Below are positions 3,521 through 47,473 of a DNA stretch of 64,000 bases, in pieces. Origin of the DNA: Paludibacteraceae bacterium (GTDB lineage: Bacteria > Bacteroidota > Bacteroidia > Bacteroidales > Paludibacteraceae); the NCBI GenBank assembly GCA_016295035.1, contig JAEDLW010000001.1, forward strand, positions 2,149-66,148. The letters run 5' to 3'. Both the position numbers and the translations under genes were made by a program. The notes beneath the pieces are model-generated. The model was not told the DNA's origin. It saw nothing but the letters and a program-made list of their open reading frames with translations, and made no database searches. How positions within the stretch are numbered: position 1 is the stretch's first letter; every line of letters begins with the position of its first letter.

Positions 3521-3593
3521 TGGAGTATAGGGGACTCGAACCCCTTACCTTAACATTGCGAACGTTACGCTCTACCAGATGAGCTAATACCCC
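3521..3593 (-). tRNA. tRNA-Ala (anticodon CGC)
   Basis: The reverse complement is GGGGTATTAGCTCATCTGGTAGAGCGTAACGTTCGCAATGTTAAGGTAAGGGGTTCGAGTCCCCTATACTCCA. It has the G3-U70 pair and the anticodon loop TT-CGC-AA. Confidence 0.9.
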
Positions 3594-38110: not shown

Positions 38111-38593
38111 TTATCCAAGCAGGTCCTCCGAGAAGAAACCAACAGGCATCAGATCAGCAGCATTCTCAAAGATAAATATCTCCTTTTCACCGTACAAAAT
38201 CACCTTCATCGGTTTGCCGTAACGATGCTCTGTTTCTATCATTACTTGTCGGCATGCTCCGCATGGAGCACCGGGCATTTCCGTGAAATGTCCACCCGTG
38301 AAGCATGCAATACAAAGCGTATTCACCGGCACTTCAGGATAATTGGCGCCTGCAGCAAACAGCGTCGTACGTTCTGCGCACAAACCACTGGGATATGCTG
38401 CGTTCTCTTGGTTCGCACCGCGAATAATCACGCCATTATCTAACTTCGCTGCCGCACCCACATGGAATTTTGAATACGGACAGTACGAGTTCTCTGTTTG
38501 GTGTTTGGCAATCTCTACCAACTCTTTTTCCTCTGCTGTCAGTTCGTCAAACGCACAAACTTTTACCTTTGTTTTAATCTCAATGTTTTTCAT
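38111..38593 (-). CDS. cdd: Cytidine deaminase
   Basis: It has the zinc motifs CAERTTLF and PCGACRQ and is 160 aa long. Confidence 0.92.
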   Translation of the reverse strand: MKNIEIKTKVKVCAFDELTAEEKELVEIAKHQTENSYCPYSKFHVGAAAKLDNGVIIRGANQENAAYPSGLCAERTTLFAAGANYPEVPVNTLCIACFTGGHFTEMPGAPCGACRQVMIETEHRYGKPMKVILYGEKEIFIFENAADLMPVGFFSEDLLG

Positions 38594-38704
38594 ATTTTAG
38601 GTATTTTTAAATGTTATAATCTCAATGTTTTTAATATTTTTAGGTATTTTTAAATGTTATAATATCAATGTTTTCAATATTTTTAGGTATTTTTAAATGT
38701 TAAT
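38579..38704. repeat. Three tandem copies of a 41-43 bp unit spanning the cdd start codon and upstream region
   Basis: The copies are 38579-38620, 38621-38663 and 38664-38704, with unit ctcaatgttttt(c/a)atattttt aggtatttttaaatgttataat. Only copy 1 carries the ATG; the equivalent triplet in copies 2 and 3 is ATT. Confidence 0.9.
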
Positions 38705-38833
38705 TTCTACTTCAAAATCGTTAACTCCAATGTTCTATGCAAAATATTGCATACTACGACGCCGCAAAATTACTACAAATATCTGACATAGACAAAAAAA
38801 TTGGCAAAAAAATAGAATTTATTATATTTTTTA

Positions 38834-38943
38834 GGCGGATTGTTTGGATATACCCCGGGCTACGCGAACATAAGTTCGGGGGAATTGCGTAGTGCTTGGT
38901 AGAAGTACGGAGCAAGGCAGATGTCCGAAAGTACTACTTTTTT
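38834..38943 (+). ncRNA. Candidate small RNA (~110 nt) with possible pseudoknot and an intrinsic terminator; identity unknown
   Basis: CCCCG (38853-57) can pair with CGGGG (38877-81), interleaved with CTACGC (38860-65) pairing GCGTAG (38887-92). A 3' hairpin GTACGG (38905-10) with CCG..GTAC (38925-34) is followed by TTTTTT (38938-43). Only a weak TATATTTT box lies upstream. There is no ORF. Confidence 0.3.
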
Positions 38944-38986
38944 CGACAAATTTATCATTTTTCTTGCATATATCCCAAAATTGTCG

Positions 38987-38994
38987 TACCTTTG
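38987..38994 (+). promoter_or_regulatory. -7 box TACCTTTG in a stable-RNA-like promoter module
   Basis: cTTGCatatatcccaaaattgtcgTACCTTTGCAGCC shares GTAC(C/T)TTTGCAGCC with the tRNA-Glu, tRNA-Ala and ffs promoters. Confidence 0.55.
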
Positions 38995-38999
38995 CAGCC

Positions 39000-39272
39000 T
39001 GAAAGGTATTTATGCCATCATTCGTCAGATCTTAGACGTTAAATGGGATGACATATAGTATTACAAGCATTACTATTATTTCGCGTTCGAAAAGAAAAAA
39101 GCCTAGGAAACTGATTTCTCTACGAAACGGGTAAATGCTTCACGAATGCACCTAAAATAGGACATTCCTATACAACTCAATAAGGTTCACTTTGGTGTGG
39201 ACTCTCTATGGGTTGTAGACGGAGGTTCTTCCTAGGCTCCTTCGTGAACGCGAATAGAGGTTCACACTTTTT
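39000..39272 (+). ncRNA. Candidate ~270-nt structured RNA: either a stand-alone ncRNA or a riboswitch-like leader of the downstream GT2 gene
   Basis: There is no ORF longer than about 30 aa. Long-range helices are CGCGTTC (39082-88) with GAACGCG (39246-52), and GCCTAGGAA (39101-09) with TTCCTAGGC (39229-37). The terminator hairpin GTGAAC (39244-49) with GTTCAC (39260-65) plus TTTTT shares GAAC with the closing helix. Confidence 0.4.
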
Positions 39273-39287
39273 ATGTACTCGTTGTCG

Positions 39288-39319
39288 GATTGATAGTTAT
39301 GCATAAACAACTATCAATC
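39288..39319. promoter_or_regulatory. Perfect 11-bp inverted repeat abutting the GT2 start codon
   Basis: GATTGATAGTT (39288-98) pairs with AACTATCAATC (39309-19) across a 10-nt spacer. The ATG is at 39321. Confidence 0.6.
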
Positions 39320-39320
39320 T

Positions 39321-40322
39321 ATGAAAAAATTATCGTATTCAGTTGTCATTAGGACTCTTGGAAACACTGGGCTTAAGTATAAGGCCTTGTTGGATTCTAT
39401 TGCCAATCAAACAATTCAACCGGAAGAAATTATAGTTGCAATTCCAAATGGTTACGAATTAGATTATTCATATGGTAATGAGCACATTGTACGTTGCAAA
39501 AAAGGCATGACTACACAACGTGCAGAAGGAATCTTAACTGCAAAATCTGATTATATCCTCGTGGTGGACGATGATGTGGAATTTGAAGCAACTATGGTAG
39601 AAGAATTGTATAAATATATGATTGCCAATAATCTCAATTGTTGCTTGCCTATGGAAGGAATTGATACTAATCAGGATAGTAACACAATGGACTTGAGATA
39701 CCCCTTCCTAACCCGACTACGGAACGGATTTACAGGACAAATGTTTACAAGTCGCAGAAAATCGAAATATTTGGATGTATTGACATTAGCCGCGGGGCAT
39801 AAGGTGTATATAAATAGTAATAATTTAGATACTTGTTACCTATGTACAACGGCTTGCTTTCAGTGTTTCTTTATTGAAACAAAATTGGCAAAGGCGGCTC
39901 ATTATGAGGAGGAAACTTGGCTTGAAGAAGGTTCTTATACATCATATTCAAGTTATGATGAACCTGTATTCTTTAGTAAGCTAAATAAAATAGGCCTTCG
40001 GATGGCTTATGCGTTACGTATTCGTTATAAGCATTTAGACGCAGGAGCGGGGCATAGAACTCGGAGTAAATTGGAAGACAAATCTTTAAGATATTTTTCT
40101 ATGGCGCGCAATAGGACGGTTTATTGGTATAGATTCATCTATCGGTATCAAACTTCACGAATTAATAAGTTGAGAGCTTTGCTTTGGGGGGGGTATTCTT
40201 TTGTCAATTGGACTATATGGACCATGCTTATTAATTGTCATCCAAAATACTGCAAATCACTAAAGCATATGTTCCTAGGCTATAAAGAAGCTGTTTTACT
40301 AATACGCTCGACGAAAAATTAG
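39321..40322 (+). CDS. Glycosyltransferase family 2 (solitary, outside the main locus)
   Basis: It has YSVVIRTLGNTGLKYKALLDSIANQT and VVDDDVEF (a DxD-like motif). Confidence 0.7.
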   Translation: MKKLSYSVVIRTLGNTGLKYKALLDSIANQTIQPEEIIVAIPNGYELDYSYGNEHIVRCKKGMTTQRAEGILTAKSDYILVVDDDVEFEATMVEELYKYMIANNLNCCLPMEGIDTNQDSNTMDLRYPFLTRLRNGFTGQMFTSRRKSKYLDVLTLAAGHKVYINSNNLDTCYLCTTACFQCFFIETKLAKAAHYEEETWLEEGSYTSYSSYDEPVFFSKLNKIGLRMAYALRIRYKHLDAGAGHRTRSKLEDKSLRYFSMARNRTVYWYRFIYRYQTSRINKLRALLWGGYSFVNWTIWTMLINCHPKYCKSLKHMFLGYKEAVLLIRSTKN

Positions 40323-40443
40323 CGTGTGCTTTTTTACAATTTCCACATTTTCACATCCATGTGCGGGGCAGGGTAAAAACGCTCGCAGTAATCGTAATAT
40401 TGTATATTATGGCGAAAACTATAACTCATATTATTGCGTGAAA

Positions 40444-40472
40444 GTGCCCGGCTTTGTCCGAGCACATTTTTT
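40444..40472 (+). terminator. Rho-independent terminator downstream of the GT2 gene
   Basis: GTGCCCGG (40444-51) pairs with TCCGAGCAC (40457-65) with one mismatch, followed by ATTTTTT. Confidence 0.6.
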
Positions 40473-40577
40473 CTTTGTCTATTTCAGGCAAATTGAATTT
40501 GCCGCTAAAAAAAGTACAAATCATACAATTTATCGCAAAAATCATAAAAAATCCTTGCATTTCCCACAAAAATTTAT

Positions 40578-40585
40578 TATCTTTG
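40578..40585 (+). promoter_or_regulatory. -7 box TATCTTTG preceded by a TTGC -33-like element
   Basis: ccTTGCatttcccacaaaaatttatTATCTTTGcactc resembles the 38987 promoter (cTTGCAT..TCCCA.AAAATT). It fires into the repeat-rich spacer. Confidence 0.45.
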
Positions 40586-40614
40586 CACTCGATTTTAAAA
40601 CCAAAGCTCTATGA

Positions 40615-40671
40615 CACCAACCACAAAAAACCAATCACCAACCACAAAAAACCAATCACCAACCACAAAAA
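40615..40671. repeat. About 2.7 copies of the 21-bp unit CACCAACCACAAAAAACCAAT
   Basis: Full copies lie at 40615-35 and 40636-56, with a partial copy at 40657-71. The minus strand carries GGTGATT twice, 21 bp apart. Confidence 0.9.
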
Positions 40672-40672
40672 C

Positions 40673-40716
40673 ATAGGTGATTCATAGGATATTCATAGGT
40701 TATTCATAGGTGGTTC
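40673..40716. repeat. Four copies of the 11-bp unit ATAGGnnnTTC
   Basis: The sequence is ataggtgattc ataggatattc ataggttattc ataggtggttc. Looser ATTTATAGG copies follow to about 40770, and another GGTGATTA lies at 40795-40802. Confidence 0.85.
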
Positions 40717-40849
40717 TTAAAATATTTATAGGATGTTTTTAAGATATTTATAAGTAATTTATAGGTGGTCAGGCTGTTCATAGTGTAATCCTAAGGTGAT
40801 TAAAATATAAATTAATGGAAAAATATTTGCATAAATGCAAAAAAAGCTG

Positions 40850-40857
40850 TACCTTTG
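40850..40857 (+). promoter_or_regulatory. -7 box TACCTTTG upstream of the amidase-like gene
   Basis: agctgTACCTTTGcgcc lies 28 nt before the ATG at 40885. Confidence 0.5.
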
Positions 40858-40884
40858 CGCCGTAATTTGGAATAATGTGTATAT

Positions 40885-43113
40885 ATGATAAATCAAATGG
40901 GAAAAATGGGAATAAAAAAGATTGGGAGTATCATTGTTTTGTTACTGCTGGCAACCAGTGGCTACGCTGTTGATTTGCACGTACTTGCAGACTCCTTGGA
41001 TAACTGGGCAGACTTCAAACTCGGCTGCATACCTAAAGTGCGGGTGACCCAGCTCAAAACAAAAGACAAAGAGATTTGGCTCTACACAAACAAAACTCTC
41101 TCCTGCCTGTCTCTCAGCCCTGATGACATTTCCTCTTTGCGCGCGAAAGTGAGCCAATGGGTAACCGGCAAAGATACTGAGCATGTCACCATTTACTCCG
41201 ATGGATTCGAATTGGACGAACTGGTTACTGAGCGTTTTCGTTCGCGGCCAGAAGAGGAACACTACCCTATACCCAATCGCCGTGAATTAGGCTGTAATCT
41301 GAACGGACAGCATATCGCGCTATGGCCCAGTCACGGCATCTACTACAATCGCGATGAGGACCGATGGAAATTACAACGCGCAACAATGTGGTCCACCGTA
41401 GAAGATTTATATACTACATCGTACGCCGAACAAGTTAGCCAGATGCTTGAACGCGCTGGCGCTACCGTACATTGGCCGCGCGCACGATATGGCAAGGACG
41501 AAAAGGCTAGCGAAATCGGACCAAGTGGCTATCCGCGCTGGGCTGAAGGAGCAAGATATTGGCTTGAGTACATTGGCGTTTCAGATAGCATATGGAATCC
41601 AGTCACCGATAAATCCAATCCCGCGAAAGATAGTGTGCGCAACGATTATTTAGATGACTTGCGCTGCCGAGGACATTGGGTCAATTGGCTTAAAACAAAA
41701 GGCATACCGGTGACTTTATCCATTGCGCTTCATACCGATGGATACTCGCAAGTAGGTGATAGCCTGACAATTGGCACACTCGCCATCTACTCTATCAACG
41801 ACTACTACAAGATGCGTACGTTCCCGAATAAGCGCAGCCGCATTCTCAACCGCGACTTGGCAGACTACGTGCAAACACAAGTAGTCGAAGATATCCGCGC
41901 AACACATGACCCAAACTGGAAACGCCGCGAACTGCAGAATGCCGGATATGCCGAAGCACGTTATACCCAAGTACCAGCCGTTTTATTGGAAATACTGAGT
42001 CATAAACAATTTGCGGATATCCGTCTCGGTCTTGAACCACAGTTCCGGCACGATGTAGCACGGGCTATCTATAAAGGTATTGGCAGATGGATTCACTCGC
42101 AAGTAGGTACCGACTTCGTCGTTCAGCCGCTTAAAGTGCAGAAAATGTCGATTTCACCGGATATGGAACTGACTTGGATACCGACGATTGACCCTATTGA
42201 ACCGTCTGCAAAACCAACTTACTACCTCGTTGAACTGCGTGAGAATGGTGGCCCATGGTATACTGCTGAACGCACAACCAAAACACATTATAAACTACCT
42301 GCCAAACAAGGTGTGCGTTACGATGTGCGCGTAATAGCCGGAAACGACGGAGGAACAAGTGCCACAAGCGAGACATTAAGTGCTCATATTGGTAAACCGA
42401 ATAAACCTTCTGTACTTATCATCAATGCCTTCAACCTCACTTCTGGTCCGCGTTGGTGGGCTGAGAACCAAAAGGCTGGTATCGTTCCTAACTCATATAG
42501 CATTCCTGATGGAGAAGATGGTATTTATATCGGCCAACAATGGGAATTCAACCGCGCACTAGACTGGGTTAGCGACGACGACTGCGGATGGGGCATGTCT
42601 TATCGCGACCAAACCGGAACACGACAAGTCGGCAATACGCATGACTACCCTGTTCTGCACGGACACGCTTTACAAGAATTAGGTTATACTTTCATAAGCG
42701 TGAATAGCGAGGCTATCGACACTATAGATGCACGCTGGGACGCTTTGGATATCATTTTCGGCAAAGACACTATCATCTCTTTCCCCGAACTTACTCGTTG
42801 GCAAGGAAAAACGCTGGTTAGTGGCGCATTACTGGGCACTATTCCTAATGCAAGCAGAACTGGTCAAGTTCGTCTTAGGGATAAGAACTATCGCTTTGCG
42901 GTAACACCTAATCCACAATACCTCTGCGCCGAAAATGCAACCGGACAAGTCGCAAAAACCGATGAGTGCGTTCTTGCTCGCTTTGCTGATAGCGGCATAC
43001 CTGCTTGTATAAAAACAAATAACAGCGTTATCTGGAGTGTTCCGTTAGAGAGCTTTGAAGACTTCAGTAGCTTATATAAACAATCAATCCAAATCTTACT
43101 CAGGAGCAAATGA
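40885..43113 (+). CDS. Secreted Amidase_3-like (N-acetylmuramoyl-L-alanine amidase fold) domain protein with a large C-terminal extension
   Basis: It has the signal-like sequence MGIKKIGSIIVLLLLATSGYA, LSIALHTDGYS and VPAVLLEILSHKQFADIRLGLEPQFRHDVARAIYKGI, matching the Amidase_3 core pattern. The exact start is uncertain (M1, M5 or M8). Confidence 0.6.
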   Translation: MINQMGKMGIKKIGSIIVLLLLATSGYAVDLHVLADSLDNWADFKLGCIPKVRVTQLKTKDKEIWLYTNKTLSCLSLSPDDISSLRAKVSQWVTGKDTEHVTIYSDGFELDELVTERFRSRPEEEHYPIPNRRELGCNLNGQHIALWPSHGIYYNRDEDRWKLQRATMWSTVEDLYTTSYAEQVSQMLERAGATVHWPRARYGKDEKASEIGPSGYPRWAEGARYWLEYIGVSDSIWNPVTDKSNPAKDSVRNDYLDDLRCRGHWVNWLKTKGIPVTLSIALHTDGYSQVGDSLTIGTLAIYSINDYYKMRTFPNKRSRILNRDLADYVQTQVVEDIRATHDPNWKRRELQNAGYAEARYTQVPAVLLEILSHKQFADIRLGLEPQFRHDVARAIYKGIGRWIHSQVGTDFVVQPLKVQKMSISPDMELTWIPTIDPIEPSAKPTYYLVELRENGGPWYTAERTTKTHYKLPAKQGVRYDVRVIAGNDGGTSATSETLSAHIGKPNKPSVLIINAFNLTSGPRWWAENQKAGIVPNSYSIPDGEDGIYIGQQWEFNRALDWVSDDDCGWGMSYRDQTGTRQVGNTHDYPVLHGHALQELGYTFISVNSEAIDTIDARWDALDIIFGKDTIISFPELTRWQGKTLVSGALLGTIPNASRTGQVRLRDKNYRFAVTPNPQYLCAENATGQVAKTDECVLARFADSGIPACIKTNNSVIWSVPLESFEDFSSLYKQSIQILLRSK

Positions 43114-46018: not shown

Positions 46019-46026
46019 ATCGGCTG

Positions 46027-46081: not shown

Positions 46082-47473
46082 TTGTTAGAAAATTTCATTA
46101 TATCACGCATTAAAGCGGAACTTCCGTTCGAGGCAAATGAAGAAAAAGGAGAACTTTTCACTCGCCTCGGTCGTTTTATGGTGAGCCCGGATCCACGCAA
46201 GTGTTTCGTGCTTAAAGGCTACGCAGGAACCGGTAAAACGAGCGTGGTCAGTGCCTTGGTGCGTGCATTAGAAAAACTACATATTAATACCGTCCTTTTA
46301 GCGCCGACTGGTCGTGCTGCAAAAGTACTATCCCGCTACTCCGGTTATCCAGCCTTCACAATTCATAAATGGATTTACAGGCAGGACTCGGCTGTTCAGG
46401 AGACATTTTCTGTGGCTGAAAATAAGAACCAAAACACCCTTTTCATCGTTGACGAAGCCAGTATGATTCCCGCTGTAAAGGATAACGAGAACTTCGGTTC
46501 CGGAAGCCTGCTTAATGACTTGGTGAGTTATGTCTATAATAGTCAAGGCTGCTCTTTGCTATTGTTGGGTGATGATGCTCAATTACCACCTGTGGGTAGT
46601 AGCGACAGCAAGGCGCTTGAACCGGACTTCCTTGCCGGCTATGGTTTGAGTGTTATGAGTTACAGCCTCACACAAGTAGCACGTCAAGCTCTTGATAGCG
46701 GCATTCTACGCAATGCCACCAAACTGCGTGAAAAGCTAAATTCTTCCGATTTTACCGTACAAATCTACCCTTGTGGAGACGTTAAAGAAATACATGGCAC
46801 AGAAGTTCAAGAACTCTTAGAACGCAGTTATCAAGAAGTAGGCGATGAAGAAACAATAATTCTTACGCGCACTAACAAGCGCACAAACCTTTACAACCAG
46901 GGCGTGCGCGCGAGAGTTTTCTGGAAAGAGGACCAAATAAGCAATGGTGACCGACTCATGGTCAGTAAGAATAACTATTTTTGGACCAAAGAATACGACC
47001 ACCTTCCTTTCCTAGCCAACGGCGACATCATGGAAATCACCCGTCTTCGTAATGAACGTGAACTGTACGGTTTCCACTTTGTTGATGCTTCCTTGCGATT
47101 AGTAGACTACAATTATGATGTGGACGCTATTCTGTGGATAGATACTCTCTTCACAGACTCACCGGATAAAAGTTATGCTCTCCAGCGAGAACTCTTCAGC
47201 AAAATAGCAGAAGACTATCCAGAGATACATAACAAAAAAGACCTCGTAAAACGCATTCGCGAGAACGAGTATTACAACGCACTACAGATACGCTTTGCGT
47301 ATGCTGTCACTTGTCACAAGGCACAAGGCGGTCAGTGGCGACGCGTCTTTATCGATCCCGGCACACCTAATCCTAACAATATCCTTACCCTCGACGACCA
47401 ACGCGATTATTTACGCTGGTACTATACTGCTCTCACGCGAGCAACCGAACAAATTTATATTATTCGGCAATAA
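46082..47473 (+). CDS. RecD/TraA-like superfamily 1 helicase (AAA_30 plus UvrD_C_2 architecture)
   Basis: It has Walker A GYAGTGKTSVVSAL, Walker B LFIVDEASMI, and the C-terminal motif AVTCHKAQGGQW. It appears to start at TTG; no in-frame ATG occurs before residue 33. Confidence 0.8.
   Translation: MLENFIISRIKAELPFEANEEKGELFTRLGRFMVSPDPRKCFVLKGYAGTGKTSVVSALVRALEKLHINTVLLAPTGRAAKVLSRYSGYPAFTIHKWIYRQDSAVQETFSVAENKNQNTLFIVDEASMIPAVKDNENFGSGSLLNDLVSYVYNSQGCSLLLLGDDAQLPPVGSSDSKALEPDFLAGYGLSVMSYSLTQVARQALDSGILRNATKLREKLNSSDFTVQIYPCGDVKEIHGTEVQELLERSYQEVGDEETIILTRTNKRTNLYNQGVRARVFWKEDQISNGDRLMVSKNNYFWTKEYDHLPFLANGDIMEITRLRNERELYGFHFVDASLRLVDYNYDVDAILWIDTLFTDSPDKSYALQRELFSKIAEDYPEIHNKKDLVKRIRENEYYNALQIRFAYAVTCHKAQGGQWRRVFIDPGTPNPNNILTLDDQRDYLRWYYTALTRATEQIYIIRQ

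Follow-up and report, generated by a model that had tools for sequence, protein, structure and literature searches.

A structured leader RNA with a candidate conditional terminator precedes unrelated accessory genes in rumen Bacteroidales

Transcriptional riboswitches of the ZTP, fluoride and preQ1-I classes have an expression platform that shares a pseudoknot strand, and among the second-messenger riboswitches (c-di-GMP-I, c-di-GMP-II and the c-di-AMP class ydaO) one class stands before many unrelated genes, surface- and phage-related ones included. In Bacteroides, capsule operons open with a gene for a NusG paralogue, behind a short opsX leader (PMC11685472). Here we describe a leader in a 64,000-nucleotide (nt) stretch of a Paludibacteraceae bacterium (contig JAEDLW010000001.1, positions 2,149 to 66,148; hereafter the window), where it precedes a gene for a GT2 glycosyltransferase and had been singled out, in an earlier note made from the letters alone, as a promoter-driven RNA with the architecture of a riboswitch or attenuator. 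We find that it belongs to a large family without a match in Rfam 15 or the searchable literature, and our preferred reading, held with modest confidence, is that these leaders are cis-acting conditional transcription terminators of an attenuator- or riboswitch-like kind. The general idea of the note survives in this reading, in that a promoter-driven cis leader free of open reading frames (ORFs) carries a terminator-type platform; the switch geometry that it proposed does not.

Folded as RNA, positions 39000-39275 reach -80.6 kcal/mol (z = -4.74) in a multi-branched structure closed by two long-range helices, P1 and P2 (Table 1), both of which had been proposed and prove to be slightly longer than first drawn. 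We tested their covariation on 52-54 non-redundant homologues, in one alignment made by MAFFT and one fitted to a covariance model. The combined structure left 85.3% and 78.9% of cells paired in the respective alignments, compared with 74.8% and 68.6% after shuffling, and none of 500 shuffles scored as high; cells in which both sides had changed numbered 208 and 366, against 62 and 156 in the shuffles, and the covariation score was ~0.37 as opposed to at most 0.15 when partners were slid. P1 and P2 differ in sequence between leader subtypes while keeping their complementarity, P2 to the point of using all four Watson-Crick pair types at several positions. The same holds in an alignment-free test, where the strands of one member pair more stably with each other than with those of other members (-16.4 versus -11.6 kcal/mol for P1, -18.3 versus -8.9 kcal/mol for P2). 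Abundant G-U pairs, together with a score of 90 bits forward versus 13 bits in reverse, fix the RNA strand. Within this frame, each member has a stem and apical hairpin equivalent to P4, which aligns poorly across subtypes (50-59% of cells paired); since neither MAFFT nor the covariance model could align P3 and P4 across subtypes, these two are supported per sequence only.

Table 1. Features of the leader and its gene in the window.
Feature	Coordinates	Strand	Details and basis
Bacteroidetes-type promoter	38961..38999	+	TTG 38964-66; -7 box TACCTTTG 38987-94; extended module GTACCTTTGCAGCC 38986-99
Optional 5' module, small H-type pseudoknot	39023..39052	+	CGUC 39023-26/GACG 39035-38; AUCUU 39029-33/GGGAU 39045-49; GAC 39050-52
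18-nt family hallmark AGCAUUACUAUUAUUUCG	39066..39083	+	final 4 nt open P1
P1, 5' strand UUCGCGUUCG	39080..39089	+	fold, covariation, cognate-strand test
P2, 5' strand AGCCUAGGAA	39100..39109	+	fold and covariation
Candidate helix P0, segment CGAAACGGGUAAAUGCU	39123..39139	+	complementary to the entire 18-mer; duplex -10.2 kcal/mol, z = -3.2
P4 arm	39159..39229	+	long stem 39159-78/39210-29 (minimum free energy fold)
Apical hairpin at P4 tip	39184-90 / ~39197-204	+	GGUUCAC / GUGGAC(U)C (minimum free energy fold)
Long-range terminator/pseudoknot helix, 5' strand GUGUGGACUCUCUAU	39195..39209	+	first 7 nt double as 3' strand of the apical hairpin
P2, 3' strand UUCCUAGGCU	39229..39238	+	96.7% of cells paired; compensatory changes at 8/9 pairs
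Local hairpin, subtype-specific	39244..39265	+	GUGAAC 39244-49 / GUUCAC 39260-65; 6 bp, 10-nt loop, -7.4 kcal/mol
P1, 3' strand UGAACGCGAA	39245..39254	+	81-83% of cells paired; compensatory changes at 6/9 pairs
3' tail AUAGAGGUUCACAC (39254-67, terminator helix 3' strand), then U-run 39268-72	39254..39272	+	duplex and covariation
Start-codon hairpin GAUUGAUAGUU / AACUAUCAAUC	39288..39319	+	39288-98/39309-19; ends 1 nt before start codon
Cargo gene, GT2 glycosyltransferase, 333 amino acids	39321..40322	+	homology to other loci covers leader and gene alone, 39059-40316

The third long-range helix joins the tip of the P4 arm to the 3' tail of the domain. In the window these strands form a 14-bp duplex of -17.5 kcal/mol, directly followed by five U residues, and this G+C-containing stem before a U-tract is the arrangement expected of an intrinsic terminator. 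Across the family 88% of its cells are paired, with compensatory changes at 9 of the 14 pairs, though the helix lies outside the covariance model, and in the alignment-free test the tail pairs with its own internal segment at -17.9 kcal/mol as opposed to -11.9 kcal/mol with those of other members. A TTTT run lies beyond position +165 in 82 of 86 members, and after seven mis-parsed members had been fixed its position falls at ~+172 to +224, mostly 185-207 nt from the start of the 18-nt hallmark. The stem is an atypical one, closing a loop of ~45 nt, and a simple terminator scan did not flag it; that scan and its sigma-70 companion, ill-suited to Bacteroidetes promoters, missed both of the hairpins considered here.

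The 5' strand of the terminator helix is also claimed by the apical hairpin. Formation of this local hairpin, which averages -10.4 kcal/mol, would tie up 4 nt or more of that strand (10.5 nt on average) in 52 of 52 members, and the terminator duplex (mean -17.9 kcal/mol) outweighs it. Judged from the sequences, the two structures that are conserved and mutually exclusive are thus the apical hairpin and the long-range helix of the terminator. Two general marks of a riboswitch are therefore found here: a covarying structured domain in the 5' untranslated region and, predicted in every member, competing structures. As P1 plus P2 and the P4 arm are similar in length, the P4 tip could reach the tail with P1 and P2 still formed, in which case the pairing would make a true pseudoknot.

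The earlier note had placed the contest elsewhere, between the closing helix and a terminator hairpin formed by GTGAAC and GTTCAC ahead of the TTTTT. The window does contain this hairpin, which overlaps P1, and the two are indeed incompatible there; across the family the pairing is not conserved (-4.5 kcal/mol with own strands versus -3.7 kcal/mol with those of other members), and we rejected it as the conserved terminator. It exists in the window because the subtype to which this copy belongs has GUGAAC in P1 and GUGGAC in the internal strand. A further candidate, in which the U-run and the bases after it fold back onto the P1 3' strand and tail, was weakly supported (-10.6 versus -8.2 kcal/mol, cognate strands beating 63% of non-cognates) and was set aside.

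The hallmark of the family is a nearly invariant 18-nt sequence, of which the window holds one occurrence. Of the 8 leaders that precede GT2 orthologues, all found independently of the hallmark, 7 match it exactly (locus L006 deviates; loci are cited by number where needed), and a close variant is present in L140-142. Family-wide, a GAAAUAAUA motif lies opposite positions 9-17 of the 18-mer in 90.9% of cells, as against 39-66% when slid, with U-G wobbles accounting for most variants of this pairing; a conserved AUGC beside the apical hairpin lies opposite its GCAU in 89% of cells. In the window both partner motifs lie together in the candidate P0 segment. These patterns suggest that the 18-mer is probably paired internally, in helices that would be either knotted with P1 and P2 or alternative to them. 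Two-sided covariation is impossible for this element, since the 18-mer itself selected the sequences.

Taken together, these features suggest a course of events. Transcription from ~39000 would produce a ~205-nt domain (39066-39272) in which the apical hairpin (39184-204) forms first and P1 and P2 close the multi-helix fold. After P1 closure, the emerging tail could start to pair with the 3' half of the internal strand (39195-209), which is left single-stranded, and then displace the apical hairpin and complete the 14-bp stem; lying directly ahead of the U-run, this stem would act as an intrinsic terminator. An effector that recognizes the conserved core, namely the 18-mer, its partner motifs and junction nucleotides, may shift the helix competition and allow read-through into the cargo gene.

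The leader is neither peculiar to this bacterium nor to its GT2 gene. A pattern search of metagenomes for the 18-mer found at least 120 loci, and the matches listed come nearly all from rumen samples; most of these are real members, a minority being chance matches in coding sequence. A covariance model built from 52 non-redundant members gives the window copy 130.6 bits and finds exactly one copy per locus. Homologous leaders are thus conserved in other rumen Bacteroidales, as the earlier note had proposed to check, and the relatives all stem from metagenomes or metagenome-assembled genomes (MAGs). GT2 orthologues at 82-89% amino-acid identity occur in rumen Paludibacteraceae and Bacteroidales MAGs, and 7 of the 7 loci that cover the upstream region have the leader (L002-L006, L008, L009). 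Among more distant orthologues, those in L140-142 (65% identity) have it at 90 bits, and those at 75% (L007), 77%, 69% and 56% identity do not, which marks the leader as a module distinct from the GT2 gene.

Among the matches listed, the genes that follow the leader are mutually unrelated. They encode EcoRI-like methyltransferases (28 loci), sulfatase-family membrane transferases (15 + 5), MBOAT proteins (7), BspA-type leucine-rich-repeat proteins (6) and Acyltransferase-3 proteins (Acyl_transf_3; 4); further cargo comprises GT2 (8 loci, one of them from an RNA-based scan), GINT1_N-like proteins and lipoproteins. In 3 of 3 loci checked, a GmrSD_N+HNH-type gene lies immediately downstream of the methyltransferase, and PADLOC, run on representatives, called MTase_II and REase_II, that is, a type II restriction-modification (R-M) operon. 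In most members the ORF starts ~230-260 nt after the 18-mer. HipA-like genes in L104 and L135 were considered as cargo and dropped, as they follow leader remnants and have their own promoter.

This assortment bears directly on what the leader might sense. It lacks the shared downstream pathway usual for riboswitch-controlled genes and fits only a general signal; the cargo genes being unrelated, what the leader answers to is probably something general in the cell, for instance a small signalling ligand or some common RNA-binding factor. A switch specific to GT2, sensing for example a nucleotide sugar and using P1 and the local GUGAAC/GUUCAC hairpin as its exclusive states, would follow the original proposal, and the two overlapping elements do exist in the window copy and its subtype. 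That local pairing is not a conserved one, the tail covarying with 39195-209 instead, and the relationships among the leaders run across those of the genes: leaders fall into divergent subtypes, and the window copy is 95% identical to the L091 leader, which lies after a tRNA and before a sulfatase-family gene, and 84-90% identical to methyltransferase leaders, as against 68-70% to those of its own GT2 orthologues, some of which have none. We regard a GT2-specific switch as most improbable; with no common pathway among the regulated genes a nucleotide-sugar ligand is very unlikely, and the GT2 substrate is an unlikely effector.

Both flanks are unrelated between loci, homology to the window ending with the leader and the cargo gene, and several leaders are shortened or rearranged. 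The leaders of L104 and L135 break off after the 18-mer and the P1 5' strand, and unrelated DNA, a new promoter and the HipA_C-like gene come next; those of L020 and L127 have their tail joined straight to a sulfatase-family ORF truncated at its 5' end; L057 is a further case. These look like recombination scars. A DNA-level element, a recombination or integration site at a gene-cassette boundary rather than a functional RNA, would be in keeping with the differing flanks, the shuffled modules and the tRNA genes and remnants that lie beside several copies. The strand-specific G-U pairs, the compensatory changes in three long-range helices and the conserved U-run are, by contrast, RNA signatures; we found no arrays or second copies of the leader in the window or near other copies, and no recombinase was linked to it in the loci inspected. 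We give this explanation hardly any credence.

Full-length leaders were not found in viral contigs, as a search of IMG/VR with the tail motif and a degenerate 18-mer returned zero or chance matches, and no GenBank phage or PLSDB plasmid matched the leader by BLASTN. A shorter relative, scoring 40-48 bits with the covariance model, has the 18-mer, then CGCGUCCACC, ACUAAUUUC, CGAAAUAAU, and AAUGUUCAC with a hairpin (L012 3555-3715(-), L013/L040 792-971(-), L025, L059, L090, L093, L116); it is without the long-range terminator and without an ORF at the usual distance, and two copies of it lie in IMG/VR viral contigs. L025, one of the contigs with this short variant, also holds, at 2380-2454, a FopS-family Bacteroidetes small RNA (sRNA; RF04319) that scores 63.4 bits, above the gathering score of 56.

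The promoter proposed for the leader is well supported by the sequence. The established -33/-7 consensus of Bacteroides is represented by a TTG 20 nt upstream of the -7 box TACCTTTG, and there are five copies of the module GTACYTTTGCAGCC in the window where 0.03 would be expected, upstream of a tRNA at 2627, a tRNA pair ending at 3593(-) and the SRP (signal recognition particle) RNA at 46023(-), and at 38986-38999, bearing out the claim that the leader shares its promoter type with tRNA and SRP RNA genes. As the SRP RNA copy directly abuts that RNA's 5' end, the leader transcript would, by comparison, begin near 38998-39002. The region that follows (38987-39320) holds no ORF longer than 45 amino acids and none that is conserved, in line with the early view that it is non-coding. 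The fifth promoter-module copy (46315-46328(-), one mismatch) lies inside and antisense to an ORF (46082-47473) and could be either chance or an antisense promoter.

A promoter of this grade and a terminator-like 3' end would also befit a trans-acting stable sRNA of ~270 nt, ended at the U-run, for which the 18-mer would be a seed or protein-binding site and the downstream gene incidental; the shorter relatives in viral contigs, without an ORF at the usual distance, point the same way. Most full-length members, however, have a same-strand ORF at a fixed distance, usually with a conserved hairpin adjacent to the AUG, and many copies have no promoter of their own. The interior evolves fast with structure alone kept, the 18-mer is apparently paired internally, and no Rfam sRNA model matches. 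The leader likewise shows no match to the 6S RNA models, and where 6S RNA is a free-standing ~185-nt gene forming a long helix with a central bubble, the fold here is multi-branched and an ORF follows in most members, and so the early alternative of a 6S-like or other free RNA fares poorly; we consider a trans-acting role very unlikely.

What precedes the domain varies from copy to copy, as if the 5' modules too were interchangeable. A TAnnTTTG box lies at most 150 nt upstream in 41 of 77 members; other copies are preceded by a same-strand gene (DUF1016/YhcG-like or KilA-N-like), and further ones by a tRNA-Ala gene or a shortened remnant of one. The window copy has, besides its promoter, the small pseudoknot at 39023-52, whose layout (CGUC, loop, GACG, UWAAA, loop complement, GAC) can be recognized by eye in many loci, its loop and partner co-varying (CUCUCC/GGAGA, CUUGC/GCAAG); a regular expression for it found 9 of 77 and under-counts. 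Further examples of this module are those of L102 (363-436), L002, L060 and L079, and it often lies directly after the stop codon of the upstream gene.

Transfer RNA-Ala genes lie directly upstream on the same strand in L004 (2599-2673, called by ARAGORN, which was run on L002-L009) and, as read by eye, in L020, L050, L070, L091 and L136. The remnants (L006, L117, L127), also read by eye, have had their middle swapped for ~10 nt with similar breakpoints; L020 and L127 look like two versions of one locus that differ by the tRNA deletion. No complementarity between these tRNAs and the 18-mer was obvious by eye, and they look like promoter donors rather than ligands.

The most widespread of the 5' modules is a covarying, stable, GC-rich hairpin, which 76 of 77 relatives have and the window copy lacks; its end lies 11-20 nt before the 18-mer, most often 16 nt. 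It opens an alternative in which regulation is by processive antitermination: the 5' part (GC hairpin, AT-rich linker and 18-mer) would recruit a NusG paralogue-like factor (UpxY, RfaH or LoaP) or an RNA-binding antiterminator that makes RNA polymerase resistant to the terminator, and the structured domain would be a gate, not a ligand sensor. Conservation of the 18-mer at the level of sequence agrees with this, as does a cargo of surface-modification and horizontally acquired genes that resembles RfaH and UpxY regulons; in Bacteroides, moreover, capsule leaders recruit UpxY via pause hairpins and ops-like DNA (PMC11685472). UpxY-type pause hairpins end ~9-14 nt before the pause or ops site. 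A hairpin 16 nt upstream would pause the polymerase before the 18-mer, leaving it in downstream duplex DNA and not in the exposed non-template strand; a NusG paralogue is not the first gene in these units, which begin with the ORF of a cargo enzyme; the hairpin is missing altogether from the window copy; and a simple terminator would do for such a mechanism, yet an elaborate covarying fold has been kept. We therefore treat factor-dependent antitermination as unlikely, if deserving of serious attention.

Between the terminator and the gene lies one more element, a hairpin that ends 1 nt before the start codon. It is found in 55 of 77 members irrespective of cargo, is absent before lipoprotein and signal-peptide cargo genes, and varies by G-U and compensatory changes (GAUUGGUAG/CUACCAAU); it is probably a translation-level or processing element, and in the conditional-terminator mechanism it would probably add control at one of those levels. 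Its conservation also suits a constitutive leader that does no switching, a portable 5' untranslated region that insulates accessory cassettes by a partial terminator and sets processing, stability or translation. Such a part would be expected where the leaders are shuffled with the cargo and with 5' modules (a promoter, a tRNA, the pseudoknot or the hairpin), where loci share the leader and cargo alone, and where many copies sit behind a same-strand gene without a promoter of their own. Against this, a ~200-nt multi-helix fold with conserved unpaired nucleotides and competing helices exceeds the needs of insulation, and a strong promoter feeding an efficient, never-relieved terminator would be wasteful, which leaves the constitutive leader, in our estimate, quite improbable.

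Around the leader, the window shows several features of its own. The leader occupies a 727-nt gap with a cytidine-deaminase-like gene (38111-38593, minus strand) on one side and the GT2 gene on the other. A 43-bp tandem repeat (38570-38702; 3.1 copies, 94% matching) overlaps the annotated start of the cytidine-deaminase-like ORF and the neighbouring intergenic DNA. Upstream of the leader promoter, 38830-38946 is a hairpin-rich stretch, with interleaved CCCCG/CGGGG and CUACGC/GCGUAG pairings and a T6 run at its end, that has a fold z of -1.8 and no conservation in any fetched locus; it may be a terminator or insulator against upstream transcription. Beyond the GT2 stop codon, ~560 nt (40323-40884) without a convincing ORF separate it from an amidase_3/fn3 gene (40885-43113), the resemblance of this interval to the common promoter being limited to its last ~60 nt.

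At gathering thresholds, the 4,227 models of Rfam 15 found in the window only the SRP RNA and three tRNAs, and a permissive scan of 38500-39450 returned only mir-310 and GP20-b at E ~3; on 16 diverse members and L102 the models placed nothing on the leader. Full-text literature searches for the 18-mer (as DNA, RNA and reverse complement) and by topic returned nothing relevant. The earlier note's failure to recognize a riboswitch class is thus matched by the databases, an absence from Rfam 15 and the searchable literature that leaves open whether the family was noted before. In that light, three features appear to be undescribed: a terminator whose stem is a long-range pairing with the tip of an arm inside the fold, an invariant 18-mer apparently linking two internal motifs, and a single class of leader that recombines freely with genes for R-M and surface modification.

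Several points weigh against the conditional-terminator reading. Termination and switching, like the kind of effector proposed, are predictions from the sequences; the terminator stem, spanning its ~45-nt loop, is of unusual design; P3 and P4 align poorly across subtypes; the pairings proposed for the 18-mer are based solely on conservation and wobble patterns; and the window copy lacks the 5' GC hairpin of nearly all its relatives, which are exclusively metagenomic or MAG-derived. A contiguous invariant 18-mer and a mixed gene set are, in addition, atypical of metabolite riboswitches. A bolder version of the same reading, that the family is a new ligand-sensing riboswitch class or a ribozyme-like doubly pseudoknotted RNA, which reads a general signal (a second messenger, or an envelope-stress or phage cue) and jointly gates a mobile R-M and surface regulon, is speculative and in our view unlikely; it would make the family an RNA counterpart of the control exerted by invertible promoters and UpxY in gut Bacteroides.

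Were the conditional-terminator reading correct, one interchangeable ~200-nt leader would control dozens of unrelated accessory genes in rumen Bacteroidales. Among the functions in question are type II R-M and surface remodelling, on which the outcome of phage attack and surface variation depends. The family would then constitute a new RNA regulon in an uncultured, abundant group, contribute an unusual terminator with a stem formed by a long-range pseudoknot, and be an orphan candidate for the discovery of its ligand or factor, for which the natural variants with compensatory changes are a ready mutational map.

Compared with described systems, the family resembles several and coincides with none that we compared. 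The Rfam model nearest to any part of it is GP20-b (RF03003), whose layout of GUC, loop, GRCG, UAAAA, loop complement and AAC/GAC recurs in the pseudoknot at 39023-52; at 15.2 bits in the window and 13.7 bits in L102, against a gathering score of 36.2, this likeness falls short, and it concerns the accessory 5' module alone, not the main domain. Like the UpxY/opsX and RfaH/ops systems, the family comprises Bacteroidales surface-gene leaders in which a nascent hairpin precedes a conserved sequence and, presumably here too, accessory operons are controlled at elongation or termination (PMC11685472). Whereas those operons begin with a NusG paralogue, here a ~200-nt pseudoknotted domain with its own terminator stands before diverse single genes or short operons that include no NusG paralogue.

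With T-boxes the family has in common a leader of 200-300 nt, a contiguous conserved block taking part in alternative pairings beside a terminator, and helix competition; it differs in that no T-box model, specifier loop or T-box sequence was found and the genes are not amino-acid related. As with c-di-GMP-I, c-di-GMP-II and ydaO, the family looks like the regulon of a general signal, though it has no sequence or structure match to them. The closest parallel in architecture is with the ZTP, fluoride and preQ1-I riboswitches, which also have a covarying multi-helix 5' leader, long-range pairing, a built-in terminator and exclusive helices sharing a strand. The terminator of those classes is a separate element with which the pseudoknot competes, whereas here the long-range helix and its U-run would themselves be the terminator; the cargo, moreover, does not belong to one pathway, and the 18-mer is contiguous and invariant. 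Matching no family in Rfam, 6S RNA, T-box or opsX-type NusG-first unit, the element would, by analogy, work like a transcriptional riboswitch or a T-box-type attenuator.

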